From an uncultured bacterium (GTDB taxonomy: Bacteria; Patescibacteriota; Minisyncoccia; Phycocordibacterales; PALSA-1337), in NCBI GenBank assembly GCA_903846945.1, contig CAINCE010000073.1, positions 13,626 through 77,625 on the forward strand: 64,000 nt of DNA, in the 5' to 3' direction. The notes below the pieces were generated by a model. It did no database searches. It was not told where the DNA came from and saw only the letters and a program-made list of their open reading frames with translations. Positions 36,874-54,063 of this stretch are shown one piece after another (the first letter of the stretch is position 1; each line of letters begins with the position of its first letter). A program made the translations under genes and the position numbers.

Positions 36874-37626
36874 ATGAATGCAAATATTGCAACACCAGGC
36901 ATGTGCCTGTCAGCGGGTGCGCGGTTCGCGACGAAACTTGGTTCGATCAGTGCTTCACATGATCTTGTGGACGCATTTCTGAAAGAGGGTGACAGTCACT
37001 CCTTCTACCAGGTTATCCTCGAACACTTCACTCCCAAGGCATCGAAGACCCAGTCACTCACACCGTGGGTTGCTGCGGCACTCGCGAATTGGGGAGACTT
37101 CTACCAGAAGTTCTTCGGTATCGACCTTGATGTGACGGCCATCCGTATTCCCGAGAAGGTGGACGGCTTCGACCGCCTGATCGTGGTCGCGAAGGGGATT
37201 CGTCTCAATCAAGTTTGGAATGCTCACGAAGAGCGTGAGATCCGAACCTGGAAGTGGTGGAGTGGCTCACTCGAGAAGGCGATGCAGGAATCTGAACGCG
37301 GTCCCGTGAAAGAGAGTTACGCATTCTGGGTTCGCGATGTTCAAGAAGCTGATGAGGAGAATAAGAATCTCTCTGCTCAGATGATCGCCGACAGCCCGAA
37401 AAAGATCGACACCGAGACTCTGCTCGAGAGGCTCGTACATGGACTCAAGTTCTGGGACGAGATAGAGAAGCAACTCGATGTGAATAACATCACGTTGTGC
37501 GCCTCGTCGCGCTGTGCCGATGGCGATGTGCCGCGGGTCTGTTGGGACGTCGGCGACGTGAACGTCGGCAGGTACGGTCCTTCGCTTCGCGATCCGGACT
37601 TGCGTGCCCGTCAGGCAGTTCGGTAG
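36874..37626 (+). CDS. DGR target (variable) protein with C-terminal C-type-lectin-like variable region
   Basis: 250 aa, GC-rich; C-terminus CADGDVPRVCWDVGDVNVGRYGPSLRDPDLRARQ is encoded by the VR; the TR-encoded NWNDDNVNVNRYNPSNRNPNLRARQ resembles CLec-fold DGR variable regions. Confidence 0.7.
   Translation: MNANIATPGMCLSAGARFATKLGSISASHDLVDAFLKEGDSHSFYQVILEHFTPKASKTQSLTPWVAAALANWGDFYQKFFGIDLDVTAIRIPEKVDGFDRLIVVAKGIRLNQVWNAHEEREIRTWKWWSGSLEKAMQESERGPVKESYAFWVRDVQEADEENKNLSAQMIADSPKKIDTETLLERLVHGLKFWDEIEKQLDVNNITLCASSRCADGDVPRVCWDVGDVNVGRYGPSLRDPDLRARQAVR
37506..37616 (+). repeat. DGR variable repeat (VR)
   Basis: 111 bp homologous to TR 37867..37977; about 20 mismatches, every one where TR has A and VR has G/C/T. 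Confidence 0.85.
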
Positions 37627-37658
37627 CGGTGTCCTTACACCTTGTTCCTTTTTCACTC

Positions 37659-37682
37659 GGCACAGAGACTTGTCTCTGTGCC
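37659..37682 (+). promoter_or_regulatory. GC-rich hairpin GGCACAGAGAC-TTG-TCTCTGTGCC downstream of VR
   Basis: 11-bp perfect stem about 43 nt 3' of the VR; DGR target sites commonly carry such a hairpin. Confidence 0.5.
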
Positions 37683-37866
37683 GACTTTTCGTATACAATA
37701 CTTCTGGTTATGAAATTTGTTGTCACATTGATGACGATAACAATTTACCAAACTTAGAAACTGCCTGTCTCCATTTATACTACGATCAAAGTACCCCGAG
37801 TTTGACACAGAGAACTTTGGTGGAAGAGGAAGGTTCTCGGAGATGTGGACGAAAGGAGACAGAATG

Positions 37867-37977
37867 GTCGCGCTATGCCGATGGCAATGTGCCGAAGGTC
37901 AATTGGAACGACGACAACGTGAACGTCAACAGGTACAATCCTTCGAATCGCAATCCGAACTTGCGTGCCCGTCAGAA
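37867..37977 (+). repeat. DGR template repeat (TR)
   Basis: A-rich copy of the VR; followed by hairpin GGAGTCT-TTATTTAA-AGACTCC plus TTTT (37986..38012). Confidence 0.85.
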
Positions 37978-38036: not shown

Positions 38037-38375
38037 TTACGAGCTTGTCTTTAGGGAGGCTATGTATGAAATCCATTTACTTAACATTCGTGAAATTTCC
38101 ACTATTTCCTTTGAGAGTTGTATGTATTTGTCTTCGCTGATAATTTTTAGTTCGTGTTCAGTGCGAATGAGGTTCTTCAATACTTCCGCCTGAACCCTTG
38201 CTAGTTCCAATGTCTTCAGTTTTTGCTCTCTCCGTGTAAATGCCGCTTCTATTAGCAGGGCTAGCAACTTGACCGCGAGATCCTCATTAAGTTTATGAAT
38301 TCCCAATTTATCTCGTTTGGACAATTCGTGTCCTGTGGTATAAATATCCTTATGCAGAATTCTAACTCTATTCAC
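38037..38375 (-). CDS. avd: four-helix-bundle protein, Avd-like DGR accessory protein
   Basis: 112 aa, helical; C-terminal ISEDKYIQLSKEIVEISRMLSKWI; located between TR and RT but on the opposite strand. Confidence 0.65.
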   Translation of the reverse strand: MNRVRILHKDIYTTGHELSKRDKLGIHKLNEDLAVKLLALLIEAAFTRREQKLKTLELARVQAEVLKNLIRTEHELKIISEDKYIQLSKEIVEISRMLSKWISYIASLKTSS

Positions 38376-38385
38376 AATAGTCGGT

Positions 38386-39459
38386 GTGCTGTTGGTATCG
38401 GAAATACTCGCGATATCAGTGGGGCAGACTTTGCGGGGGGGGGGCGCTCATAGTTGTGATTTTTATGATGTAATTTCTATCAAAAATTTACTGATAGCTT
38501 GGAAGGAATTTAGAAAGGGAAAAAGATCGAATGCCAATGTTGCTTCATTTGAACTTTGTTTGGAAGAAAATATATTTAACATGCATAGGATTCTTTCTAC
38601 AGGGACATGGAAACCAGACCCTTATAGAGTATCAGTAATTCAAGATCCGAAACGACGGACCATTCATGCGGCTAGTATACGAGATCGGGTTCTCTATCAA
38701 GCATTATACAGGAAATTGTATCCTGTATTTGATCAGCATTTTATCTACGATGTGTACTCCTCGCGAAATTTCAAGGGGACACACGCTGGTGTGGGAAGAT
38801 TTGCTGTATTTACTAGAAAAGTTTCGCAGAATTATACGAGAGCCGGATATGTATTGAAGTGTGATATACGAAAGTTTTTTGATTCTGTGGATCACCGTAT
38901 ATTGTTCCAACTCATTTCAAAGCGGATTTCGGATAAACGACTTTTGAGGTTGATTTACGATATTATCGATTCATTTCATCACGCTTCGAATAAAGGTTTA
39001 CCTCTTGGAAACGTGACTAGTCAGCTGTTTGCGAATATCTATATGAATGAATTTGATCAATTTGTTAAACACAGACTTAAGGCGAAATATTACATTCGCT
39101 ATTGCGATGACTTTATCATTGCGGAGGTGTCGCTAGAGATACTATTGAAGTATATAGAAACAATACGAGCAGTCCTCCATGAAGAATTGCTATTGGATCT
39201 ACATCCGAAAAAAGTTGAAATACGAAAGATACATAGCGGTATAGATTTTCTCGGCTACGTTTCTCTTCCACATTATGCAGTTATTCGAACTAGTACGAAG
39301 AATAGAATGCTTCGAAAGCTTCATGAAGCAAAAAAACAACGTGATTCGGGGGTCATTTCTAAAGCAAAATTTGATAGCATAGTTGCTTCATATTCTGGAA
39401 TGTTGAAGCATTGTAAGGGCAAGAAGATACTTGATCAGATCAAGGATATTATTAAGTAA
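38386..39459 (+). CDS. DGR reverse transcriptase
   Basis: 357 aa; domain 0 (NLLIAWKEFRKGK), motif 1-2 RRTIHAASIRDRVLYQAL, motif 4 LPLGNVTSQLFANIYMNEFD (the SQ variant typical of DGR RTs), motif 5 YIRYCDDFII (YxDD). A G10 tract sits at codons 17-20. Confidence 0.85.
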   Translation: MLLVSEILAISVGQTLRGGGAHSCDFYDVISIKNLLIAWKEFRKGKRSNANVASFELCLEENIFNMHRILSTGTWKPDPYRVSVIQDPKRRTIHAASIRDRVLYQALYRKLYPVFDQHFIYDVYSSRNFKGTHAGVGRFAVFTRKVSQNYTRAGYVLKCDIRKFFDSVDHRILFQLISKRISDKRLLRLIYDIIDSFHHASNKGLPLGNVTSQLFANIYMNEFDQFVKHRLKAKYYIRYCDDFIIAEVSLEILLKYIETIRAVLHEELLLDLHPKKVEIRKIHSGIDFLGYVSLPHYAVIRTSTKNRMLRKLHEAKKQRDSGVISKAKFDSIVASYSGMLKHCKGKKILDQIKDIIK

Positions 39460-50977: not shown

Positions 50978-52738
50978 ATGTTTATCAACATGCTCATCGA
51001 AGACACCCAACTCTTTAAGTTTATCCAAGATTCTGGACTAGTTTCCAAGGATGATCTAGAAGTAGCAAAAAATGAGGCAGATGAAAATAACAAGAGGCTC
51101 GGCGATGTGCTAGTTACCAATGGCAAGATCACCGTCGATAATTTGCGTCGCATGCAAGCCTATGTTCTAGGTATTCCTTTCGTAAATCTAAAGAACAAGA
51201 AGATCCCCCTCGATACCCTGTCTCTCATACCAGAACCTATCGCTCGTACACACAATATCGTCCCATTTAAAAAGACTGATACGACGCTAGAAGTGGCGAT
51301 GCTCAATGTAAATGATCTCTCAGCTATCGACTTCATAAAAAAGAAAGTAAATCTAAAGATATTGCCACGACTCACTGATGCGGACTCTCTGAAGGAAGTG
51401 ATGGTTCAGTATCAAAAAAGTCTAAAAGCGGAGTTTGGAGACATCATCCAAAAGGAAACGGCAGCATTGAAGATGGTTGCAGAAGAGAAAGGGGAGCCAA
51501 CTTCAGCAGATGATCTTAAAAAGATCGCAGAGGATCTGCCAGTCGTGCGCATTGTGGATACACTCGTTAAGCATGCCATCATTCAGAATGCGTCAGATAT
51601 CCACATAGAACCCATGGAAGATCAAGTACTAGTTAGATACAGGATAGATGGCATGCTACATGATGCCATGGTACTACCAAAACAGGCGGGACCATCAGTA
51701 ACTGCGCGTATCAAGGTGTTGTCGAATCTCAAATTGGACGAAAAGCGTTTGCCACAGGATGGTAGGTTCCGTGTAGATATAGCTAATGAGAGAGTTTCGT
51801 TCCGTGTTTCCATCTTGCCGACATATTATGGCGAAAAGACCGTGATGCGTCTACTTCGTGAGAATATCACCAGCTTTTCACTCGAGTCACTCAATTTCCA
51901 TGGAGAAAGTTTGGAGCGTATACATGAAGCATTGAAGAAAACTACAGGGATGATCCTCACGACTGGTCCAACAGGATCTGGTAAGACTACTACCCTGTAT
52001 ACCATGTTGGATATATTGAACACTCCAGATGTGAACATTTCGACTATCGAAGATCCTATAGAATATCAGATGGCTCGTATCAATCAGACTCAGGTCAAAC
52101 CTGATATCGGATTTTCATTCGCTCAGGGTATACGCACTCTAGTGCGCCAGGACCCAGATATCATCATGGTGGGTGAAATCCGAGATAACGAGACGGCAGC
52201 GCTCGCTATAAATGCGGCTCTAACTGGACACTTGGTCTTGTCAACATTGCATACGAACAGTGCCGCGGGTGCTATCCCTCGTCTTTTGGATATGAAAGCG
52301 GAAACATTTTTGCTGGTCTCAACTATCGATGTTGTTATCGGACAGAGACTGGTTAGACACCTAACTGATACAAAGGAATCATATAAACTCTCGAAAGCAG
52401 AATTAGCAGAGCTAACAAAGCTCGTCGATCTCGATCGAGTTCTGGCAGCACTCATAGAAGAAAAGATCATTCACCCATCTGATACATGGGAAAATATACC
52501 ATTTTTCAAGCCAGTCAAGGGTGTAGATGATGATGGATTCAAGGGTCGTGTGGGGATTCATGAAGTGATCAGGATGACACCGAGTATCAAAGACCTCATC
52601 ATGAAGAATTCTAGATCTAGTGTTATCGAAGACCAGGCAAAAAAGGAGGGGATGCTCACCATGTTAGAGGATGGTATATTTAAGTGTGTGCAGGGACTGA
52701 CTACGATAGAAGAGGTGCTCCGAGTTATCACAGAGTAA
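50978..52738 (+). CDS. pilB: type IV pilus / type II secretion ATPase PilB/GspE
   Basis: 586 aa; Walker A GPTGSGKTTTLY, His/Asp boxes, N-terminal GSPII domain. Confidence 0.95.
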   Translation: MFINMLIEDTQLFKFIQDSGLVSKDDLEVAKNEADENNKRLGDVLVTNGKITVDNLRRMQAYVLGIPFVNLKNKKIPLDTLSLIPEPIARTHNIVPFKKTDTTLEVAMLNVNDLSAIDFIKKKVNLKILPRLTDADSLKEVMVQYQKSLKAEFGDIIQKETAALKMVAEEKGEPTSADDLKKIAEDLPVVRIVDTLVKHAIIQNASDIHIEPMEDQVLVRYRIDGMLHDAMVLPKQAGPSVTARIKVLSNLKLDEKRLPQDGRFRVDIANERVSFRVSILPTYYGEKTVMRLLRENITSFSLESLNFHGESLERIHEALKKTTGMILTTGPTGSGKTTTLYTMLDILNTPDVNISTIEDPIEYQMARINQTQVKPDIGFSFAQGIRTLVRQDPDIIMVGEIRDNETAALAINAALTGHLVLSTLHTNSAAGAIPRLLDMKAETFLLVSTIDVVIGQRLVRHLTDTKESYKLSKAELAELTKLVDLDRVLAALIEEKIIHPSDTWENIPFFKPVKGVDDDGFKGRVGIHEVIRMTPSIKDLIMKNSRSSVIEDQAKKEGMLTMLEDGIFKCVQGLTTIEEVLRVITE

Positions 52739-52839
52739 TTAGATTTAAGATTAATGATTTTCGATTTAAGATTCACACAAAATTCATTCCAAATAGCGTT
52801 ATTCATAAATCTTATCTCTTAAATCCTAAATCTATTCCT

Positions 52840-54063
52840 ATGAGCCACTTTACATACAAAGCAAAAAAGCCAGGAGGGGCGATATACAGCGGTGACCGTG
52901 ATGCGGCTGATCGTTATGAACTATATAGACTAGTCAGAGAAGGGGGGGATGAAATAGTCCAATTCCGAGAAGTCGGTTTGTCAAAAGGGCTGAATCTGCA
53001 TATGTCATTTTCTATGCTCACAAATAGTGTCAGGATGATAGACAAGATCAATTTTGCTAGGAATCTCGGTTCAATGTTGGAAGCTGGTTTGGCGCTGGCT
53101 CGAGCACTATCAGTTCTAGAGAGACAGACTGGCAGCAAATCATTGAAGAAAGTCATAACAGACCTGATAGAGGAGATCACAAAAGGAACGACATTGTCAG
53201 ATGCCCTAGCAAAGCATAAAAAAGTTTTTTCTCCTTTGTTCATATCCATGGTCCACGCAGGTGAGCAGAGTGGAACTTTGTCCGACTCATTGAAAGTCGT
53301 CGCTTCTCAGATGGATAGTAACTATTCATTGCAAAAACGTATTCGTGGTGCCCTCATGTATCCAGGAGTCATCATTTCGGCGATGATCGTGATCGCAATA
53401 CTCATGTTCGTATTTGTCATCCCAACGCTCTTGAAGACATTTACTGATCTAAATGTTGCACTACCGCTCAGTACGCAGGTTGTCCTAGGATTGAGTAACT
53501 TGGTTCAACACCAGGGTTTGTTGCTGTTGGCAGTCGTGATAATGATCGCGGGGATGTTCTACTGGTGGGCAAAACAAATCAAAGGCAAGTATGTAATGGA
53601 CAAGGCGGTATTGAAAATCCCCATGATAGGAAAGTTGGTTCAAGAAGTAAATACGGCTAGAACGGCCCGAACCTTGGCTTCATTGCTCAATTCTGGCGTA
53701 GATGTTGTTGAGGCCATGGCTATAACAGCCAATGTTGTGCAAAATGTCCATTTCAAAGCCGTGCTCATGAAAGCTATGGAGGCGATCAAGAAGGGTGATC
53801 TCATGTCCAAAGTTTTTGAGGAAGAGACGAAATTATACCCAGTGTTCTTTTCGGAAATGGTCAGTGTTGGAGAGGAAACTGGTAAGACGGGAGAAATGTT
53901 ACTCGGTGTAGCTCATTATTACGAAAATGAAGTTGAGCAGAAAACTAAGGACATGTCGACGATCATCGAACCATTCCTCATCCTCTTGATCGGAGCCGCC
54001 GTTGGATTCTTCGCAGTCTCTATGATACAGCCGATGTATTCACTAGTGGGAGCGATCAATTAG
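52840..54063 (+). CDS. pilC: type IV pilus platform protein PilC/GspF
   Basis: About 407 aa from MSHFTYKAKK; two GspF repeats and three TM helices. Confidence 0.9.
   Translation: MSHFTYKAKKPGGAIYSGDRDAADRYELYRLVREGGDEIVQFREVGLSKGLNLHMSFSMLTNSVRMIDKINFARNLGSMLEAGLALARALSVLERQTGSKSLKKVITDLIEEITKGTTLSDALAKHKKVFSPLFISMVHAGEQSGTLSDSLKVVASQMDSNYSLQKRIRGALMYPGVIISAMIVIAILMFVFVIPTLLKTFTDLNVALPLSTQVVLGLSNLVQHQGLLLLAVVIMIAGMFYWWAKQIKGKYVMDKAVLKIPMIGKLVQEVNTARTARTLASLLNSGVDVVEAMAITANVVQNVHFKAVLMKAMEAIKKGDLMSKVFEEETKLYPVFFSEMVSVGEETGKTGEMLLGVAHYYENEVEQKTKDMSTIIEPFLILLIGAAVGFFAVSMIQPMYSLVGAIN

Follow-up and report, generated by a model that had tools for sequence, protein, structure and literature searches.

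Here, we describe a diversity-generating retroelement (DGR) in a stretch of 64,000 nucleotides from an uncultured bacterium of the Patescibacteriota (contig CAINCE010000073.1 of assembly GCA_903846945.1, positions 13,626 to 77,625; hereafter the window, in whose coordinates all positions are given), and in particular a run of ten G that is shared by the 5' regions of its reverse transcriptase (RT) gene and of its avd (accessory variability determinant) gene. The DGR is genuine. Its target gene (36874-37626, + strand) carries at its 3' end the variable repeat (VR, 37506-37614, +), a 109-nt repeat that is 83% identical to the template repeat (TR, 37867-37975, +), and all mismatches between the two fall on adenines of the TR. 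The avd open reading frame (ORF; 38037-38375, − strand, 112 aa) is divergent from RT and matches the bAvd profile PF22296 with an E-value of 4e-9 and 37.4 bits, slightly below the 40-bit cut-off; its homologs at related loci carry PF22296. The longest RT ORF at the tract length of the window runs from GTG 38386 to 39459 (+ strand, 357 aa) and contains an RVT_1 domain (3.4e-24 in a profile search), and its nearest homologs are Patescibacteria RTs that adjoin avd, with a TR/VR pair checked in one of them.

The tract consists of exactly ten consecutive G at 38435-38444 on the + strand (G10), corresponding to poly(C) on the − strand. An earlier note on this DNA had reported a G10 homopolymer at 38433-38446; the ten G are real, and the wider span had counted in the flanking GC and CG. 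The note's reading of the codons as R-G-G-G (CGG GGG GGG GGC), upstream of the RT domain, holds, since RVT_1 covers residues 89-291 of the 357-aa ORF. In the avd frame, the same run encodes Pro-Pro-Pro. It is the sole G or C run of at least 8 in the window (43.6% G+C), which contains three G runs and no C run of at least 6, and the number of G runs of at least 10 expected in the window is 0.014-0.02 under an i.i.d. or first-order model. A second public assembly (L001, ENA ERZ18642253), identical to the window over 6.9 kb, has G10 as well. By the definition of poly-G tracts used for Campylobacter, i.e., 7 or more (PMC4965091), G10 is a simple sequence repeat long enough to slip, and it lies inside the 5' coding region of RT and the antisense 5' region of avd.

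Ahead of the tract, the first start codon of the RT ORF is GTG 38386, located 49 nt before the first G, and it is followed in frame by TTG 38392, GTG 38419, and TTG 38431. The earlier note had placed the tract 48 nt after the only in-frame ATG, which is incorrect: 38386 is a GTG, and at G10 no in-frame ATG precedes the tract. The two upstream ATGs, at 38295 and 38352, lie in another frame that joins RT at G9 or G12 only; at G10, the leader frame that opens with the canonical RT start ATG 38352 (38352-38453, +) crosses the tract and ends at the stop 38451-38453, and the first in-frame ATG of RT is Met66 (38581), within the conserved N-terminal region. On the − strand, the canonical avd start (ATG 38451-38449) is the reverse complement of the CAT codon of RT His22. 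At G10 it opens only a short ORF (38416-38451) that crosses the poly-C as M-S-A-P-P-P-Q-S-L-P-H and terminates at TGA 38418-38416; at G9 or G12 it is in frame with avd and adds an N-terminal tail of ~25 aa. The sole start available to avd in the G10 phase is GTG 38375. Both ATG-initiated ORFs are thus restored at G9 or G12, and at G8 or G11 RT is left with one distant GTG. On these reading frames, the G10 of the window is the phase that is "one too long", with both putative canonical ATGs out of frame. RT may nevertheless still be made at G10, since GTG 38419 aligns exactly with the RT-initiating ATG of the closest relative (L082, 83% aa identity), inside a 21-nt insertion common to both, and this GTG is most plausibly the start used in the G10 phase. 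The public annotation of the window RT (P0002, 292 aa, 100% identical) begins at Met66, and avd is uncalled in the public annotations of L001 and of a further assembly of this strain, L083.

The same arrangement recurs across related Patescibacteria. A protein search returned thousands of RTs, and most of the first 60 matches listed, to which the motif survey was confined, share the N-terminal motif GGG-x-H-x-x-[DN]-[FY]-x-DVIS. In an alignment of 40 sequences, G18, G19, G20, and H22 of RT are invariant or nearly so, and the same is true within residues 18-64 of G19, N34, W39, F42, G45, K46, S48, F55, L59, and E60. The loci themselves were sampled as DNA of 80 species-level representatives (the best RT matches, one genome per species, with RTs 45-75% identical), and the tract counts cover the 72 loci in which both RT and avd could be placed, each counted once irrespective of phylogenetic relatedness. 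A run of G7-G14 occurs at the same site in 64 of these 72 loci, with modes at 9 and 10, lengths that resemble those of Campylobacter tracts. Within the tract, 80% of the Gly codons are GGG, compared with 21% in the remainder of the same RT genes, at a mean locus G+C of 42%; as synonymous sites are saturated at such divergence, the homopolymer itself is maintained. Two of the loci, L022 and L063, have N-runs by the tract, and in L063 a long poly-C directly abuts the poly-G; assemblies tend to break or scaffold there.

An avd homolog is located on the − strand immediately upstream of RT in 73 of 81 other loci, and the avd frame is open across the poly-C (Pro-Pro-Pro) in 43 of the 47 loci examined. 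To the left of the tract, the ATG that serves as RT start (+ strand) stands in the context ATGAAYAAYMGG, often with ATGCAG before it, and this ATGCAG/ATGAAY context is conserved in homologs; the peptide encoded from it, M-[NHD]-[NDQ]-R-x-I-x-x-V-GGG, can be recognised both in and out of frame with the RT body. To the right, the ATG that serves as avd start (− strand) is the reverse complement of the conserved RT His codon, which is CAT in 48 of 48 loci as compared with a background of 67% for the other His codons of the same genes. The left ATG, open to the tract, is found in 63 of the 64 tract-bearing loci and the right ATG also in 63 of 64, in every phase. Because each gene has its start on one side of the tract and its body on the other (RT from left to right, avd from right to left), tract length modulo 3 sets both reading frames at once.

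Two further features were observed around the left ATG. TATAAA(T)- or TATAAT-like boxes end 7-14 nt upstream of it in the window (38340-38354) and in homologs, which hints at RT mRNAs with very short leaders or none. The same bases are antisense to conserved Avd codons (L-H/Y-K-D-I-Y), and the conservation of the box is hence ambiguous. In L003 and L011, the 24 nt ahead of the tract contain an ATG in every one of the three frames (ATGAATAATGGGCAA..ATG), and each of these frames stays open as far as the tract, so that at these two loci RT could in principle be translated whatever the tract length.

The frames of the RT and avd bodies, as taken from tblastn, are scattered among the tract-bearing loci. 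Both ATGs are in register in 22 of the 64, 29 are in the +1 phase, with a tract that exceeds an in-register length by one nucleotide or falls short of it by two, and 13 are in the +2 phase. All eight loci that have no run of at least 7 at this site (L012, L025, L028, L030, L031, L054, L061, and L066) are in register (Fisher p = 4.9e-4), which indicates that the in-register arrangement is the functional design and that the scatter is specific to the homopolymer. Past the tract, the RT ORF extends for at least 318 codons in all phases, and this intactness, together with the retention of both ATGs, argues that the out-of-phase copies are not decaying.

Tract lengths were also compared between assemblies, as assembled consensus sequences, and four species, including the strain of the window, differ in tract length among otherwise identical contigs. 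For the window strain, the contig L083 (ENA ERZ27313345) equals the window at every base over 6.5 kb, including the VR, except that its tract is G12 and not G10. At G12, RT is in frame with ATG 38352 and avd with ATG 38451, and the RT of L083 (P0122, 369 aa, MQNSNSIHNSR...GGGGAH..., in the 90% cluster of the window RT) starts at ATG 38352. In a second species (L084-L087), the tracts are G12, G10, G11, and G11; three of these contigs are identical over ~3.9 kb apart from the tract, and the fourth, L086, differs by 18 substitutions only, clustered in the VR (~770-857 in L084 coordinates). The confinement of these changes to the VR indicates that the DGR is active in the population of the second species; the VR of the window strain is identical in the window, L001, and L083. 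A third species has G9 in two assemblies, one of which calls an avd of 120 aa from the right ATG, and G10 in six assemblies from different samples and assemblers, five of which call an avd of 73 aa. One linked single-nucleotide polymorphism (SNP) separates the G9 set from the G10 set, and this linkage, together with the repeated lengths, shows that the length calls are reproducible and not random noise. The fourth species has G9 and G10 in contigs from JGI; the scan of JGI metagenomes gave matches from other species only and none from the window strain. One more contig, L094, was set aside because it proved to have an unrelated junction upstream of RT.

In silico, these length changes alter the frames of the predicted products: RT is called with 292, 343, or 369 aa and avd with 73 or 120 aa. 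The related contigs L088-L093 follow the same pattern, with avd calls of 73-78 aa beside out-of-phase tracts and of 120 aa beside in-phase ones, and several homologous RTs are called short, at ~273-299 aa. In three loci, a single substitution interrupts the tract and leaves its total length as it was (G8CG in L082, G7AGG in L097 and L102), and all three are in the phase that offers an alternative ATG just upstream; judged by their sequences, they look like "locked" alleles.

We interpret the G10 tract as a hypermutable contingency locus that acts on the RT and Avd frames together through slipped-strand changes in its length, and we give this reading a probability of roughly 0.6. As proposed, the homopolymer sits in an antisense overlap of ~45-100 nt between the 5' ends of RT (+) and the divergent avd (−), slipped-strand mispairing at replication would change its length, length modulo 3 would determine if translation of RT and Avd can proceed from the canonical starts, and mutagenic retrohoming would thereby become heritably but reversibly switchable. 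In characterised DGRs such as the Bordetella system, RT and Avd are both needed for mutagenic retrohoming (PMC5758913), so that diversification of the target protein would be switchable by tract phase, and the tract would probably be a heritable, reversible switch for the whole DGR. The anatomy of the overlap, its conservation, the frame logic, and the polymorphism between identical contigs can be read directly from the assemblies; from these we infer that slippage occurs at a high rate during replication, that protein output and DGR activity would differ by phase, and that such a switch would have adaptive value. The balance also tips somewhat in favour of a broader proposal, namely, that a large clade of Patescibacteria (candidate phyla radiation, CPR) DGRs carries a conserved bidirectional contingency switch, in which a single hypermutable poly(G·C) tract is embedded where the 5' coding ends of RT and avd overlap in antisense and the ATG of each gene is, on the opposite strand, a His codon of the other, and in which targeted hypermutation is made phase-variable by a stochastic, heritable, and reversible gate with possibly three states.

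The suggestion of the earlier note that the tract is a slipped-strand phase-variation tract of RT gains support from its conservation in 64 of 72 loci, from the random-like scatter of phases, and from the length differences between identical contigs, with the amendment that avd is affected too and not RT alone. Its picture of an on/off switch of RT by +1 or −1 changes is right in that length sets the frame relative to a conserved ATG; it needs qualification in that G10 is itself out of phase, in that alternative in-frame starts such as GTG 38419 are available, and in that the switch need not be a simple ON/OFF one.

Several points weigh against the contingency-locus reading. The lengths were read from assembly consensus, and homopolymers are a common site of sequencing error. 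The phases depart somewhat from a uniform distribution (chi-square p = 0.049), the +1 phase being over-represented. Of the 29 loci in the +1 phase, 13 have a second ATG in that frame; translation of RT may hence be possible in two phases out of three, and the switch would then be less than binary. No such extra in-frame ATG was found in the 13 loci of the +2 phase, and there may be three states to the device instead of two. For Avd, the Pfam domain does not need the N-terminal tail, and translation may begin at an internal GTG or TTG left of the tract whatever its length. Finally, if RT needs Gly and Avd needs Pro at this site, only GGG/CCC codons would do in phase, and the nucleotide conservation could thus partly be a by-product of dual coding.

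This last point can be extended into an explanation of its own, in which Gly-Gly-Gly of RT opposite Pro-Pro-Pro of Avd permits only GGG/CCC and changes in length are unselected noise or transient inactivation. In phase, the RT codons GGN and the avd codons CCN indeed intersect at GGG only, with M-x-PPP of Avd opposite GGG of RT, G18, G19, and G20 are invariant or nearly so in the protein, and some tract-free loci stay Gly-rich by means of mixed codons (GGA GGT GGC in L031, G-S-G in L030). Neither motif is indispensable, however: L058 and L012 are without Gly3, and the Avd tails of tract-free loci (MTTQIP, MATSL, MTNKF) lack PPP. Moreover, the runs often exceed 9 nt and reach into the flanking codons, up to G14, and two-thirds of the loci are out of register and yet keep the tract, both ATGs, and intact ORFs. 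Conservation of Gly3 at the protein level as a sufficient cause is ruled out by the excess of GGG (80% versus 21%), by the extension into flanking codons, and by the two-thirds of loci that are out of phase. Dual coding may contribute to the conservation of the tract; as the explanation of it, we regard it as unlikely.

Recoding at the level of RNA, by stuttering of RNA polymerase or by ribosomal frameshifting, would yield an in-frame product from any DNA length and leave the tract to tune expression constitutively. In most loci the canonical ATG is out of frame, and yet the RT ORF is intact and both ATGs are retained, as expected if the product is made, and long homopolymers can cause transcriptional slippage in bacteria. 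However, the documented cases of bacterial transcriptional slippage lie mostly in A/T runs, and programmed frameshifting or slippage would call for a fixed, conserved offset, whereas offsets of 0, +1, and +2 all occur (22, 29, and 13 loci). A stimulatory RNA structure was likewise not found at the tract, with no match in Rfam and a fold of 38340-38500 that is no better than those of shuffled sequences (z = −0.33), and the differences in length between identical contigs are seen directly in the DNA. RNA recoding thus seems quite improbable as the main function of the tract, although it is conceivable as an additional layer.

Alternatively, the length differences could be sequencing or assembly artefacts, i.e., poly-G miscalls or homopolymer errors that conceal a sequence that is always in frame. 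Homopolymer length is a known weak point of sequencing, several of the metagenome-assembled genomes (MAGs) have low coverage, and L022 and L063 show the N-runs or odd poly-C by the tract mentioned above. Such errors are nevertheless difficult to reconcile with a tract that lies inside contigs, between unique and conserved coding flanks, and that recurs at one and the same codon in 64 species, whose sequences come from many studies and assemblers. In addition, G10 is seen again in each of six independent assemblies, which a linked SNP sets apart from the two assemblies with G9, the G10/G12 difference in the window strain amounts to 2 nt, and 42 of 64 consensus sequences are out of frame, far above any plausible rate of consensus error, and we consider this explanation very improbable.

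Hardly credible is the remaining alternative, also raised in the earlier note together with an N-terminal alignment as its check, that RT starts downstream, as in the deposited P0002, and that the tract is part of a 5' untranslated region where a G-rich run could look like a ribosome-binding site: no in-frame ATG, GTG, or TTG exists between the tract and Met66, and hence none before the conserved N-terminal motif, which speaks against the tract as a 5' untranslated region or Shine-Dalgarno-like element, and homologs, tract-free ones included, start upstream, so that a start at Met66 would drop the invariant positions of residues 18-64.

Two other roles for the tract were considered and rejected. 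A scan for consensus promoters found no sigma-70-type promoter-like pair across the tract that would make it a spacer of the kind known from Bordetella fim and Neisseria opc. A GC element of the DGR like that of the initiation of mutagenic homing (IMH) site is ruled out by position, the tract lying ~460 nt downstream of the TR and inside the RT/avd overlap.

Read as a contingency locus, the tract resembles the poly-G/poly-C loci of Campylobacter jejuni, Neisseria, and Haemophilus and the C-run of bvgS in Bordetella in that a G/C run of ~8-12 nt lies in the 5' part of an ORF, in that its length varies among close or identical strains and shifts the gene body in and out of frame with the start, and in that it is kept in a genome that otherwise avoids runs of this kind. 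It differs from them in what would be gated, which is the DGR machinery and not a surface structure or a restriction-modification enzyme, in that one tract within two antisense-overlapping ORFs sets both frames, and in the breadth of its conservation, which spans a deep, uncultured clade of Patescibacteria instead of a single pathogen species. A single repeat tract that sets two divergent genes at once has a counterpart in hifA/hifB of Haemophilus influenzae, where TA repeats lie in overlapping promoters; in that system promoter spacing is altered, whereas here the tract is inside both coding regions and would act through the reading frame. Switchable mutators are known as well, such as mutS or mutL under the control of repeats or prophages. 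Like these, the tract would toggle a mutation-generating capacity by a reversible genetic change, with the difference that they alter the genome-wide mutation rate and the tract would gate the site-directed diversification of one target protein.

With other DGRs, i.e., those of the Bordetella phage BPP-1 type and those of CPR/Patescibacteria (PMC5758913), the locus shares an RVT_1 RT, an Avd-like protein, an adenine-specific TR/VR pair, and a VR at the 3' end of the target gene; it is unlike them in that avd is divergent and lies antisense over the RT 5' end, with a conserved homopolymer in the overlap. No account of a homopolymer or phase-variable tract in a DGR was found in full-text searches or in the DGR survey PMC5758913, which do not extend to the CPR DGR survey of Paul et al. 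(2017). What is unusual here is the DGR as the gated function, the placement in two antisense ORFs with reciprocal ATG/CAT starts, and the conservation over a deep clade.

Little is known about how DGRs are controlled in nature, and a large fraction of those described belongs to CPR/Patescibacteria. Should the proposed switch exist, it would provide tiny and probably host-attached cells with a means of bet-hedging, whereby a binding protein is diversified and a useful variant is then reversibly locked by turning the machinery off. It would constitute a second-order evolvability device, a mutational switch over a mutator, and a rare case of one repeat that frames two antisense-overlapping genes. 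The tract also explains a widespread mis-annotation in public MAGs, in which RTs are cut to ~290 aa and avd is truncated or missing, and a survey of DGRs that accepts intact ORFs only will count too few of these systems or misjudge them.

The neighbouring genes of the window encode ClpP, an RsmE-like methyltransferase, trigger factor, and an H+-PPase, which, together with all close homologs, suggest a Patescibacteria/CPR genome. A perfect hairpin with a 12-bp stem (7 G-C pairs) followed by a T-rich tail is present at 37657-37684, ~30 nt past the stop of the target gene and the VR, and resembles the GC-rich inverted repeat or terminator that is frequent downstream of the VR/IMH of DGRs. The gene calls of two homologous RTs (P0034 and P0043) extend to ~600 aa and include FolD domains (PF00763/PF02882); as FolD is a downstream neighbour in L084-L087, these called fusions may be read-through or mis-called products. 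The second-longest G run of the window is a G7 at 52942-52948, located ~86 codons into a 459-aa ORF (52684-54063, +).

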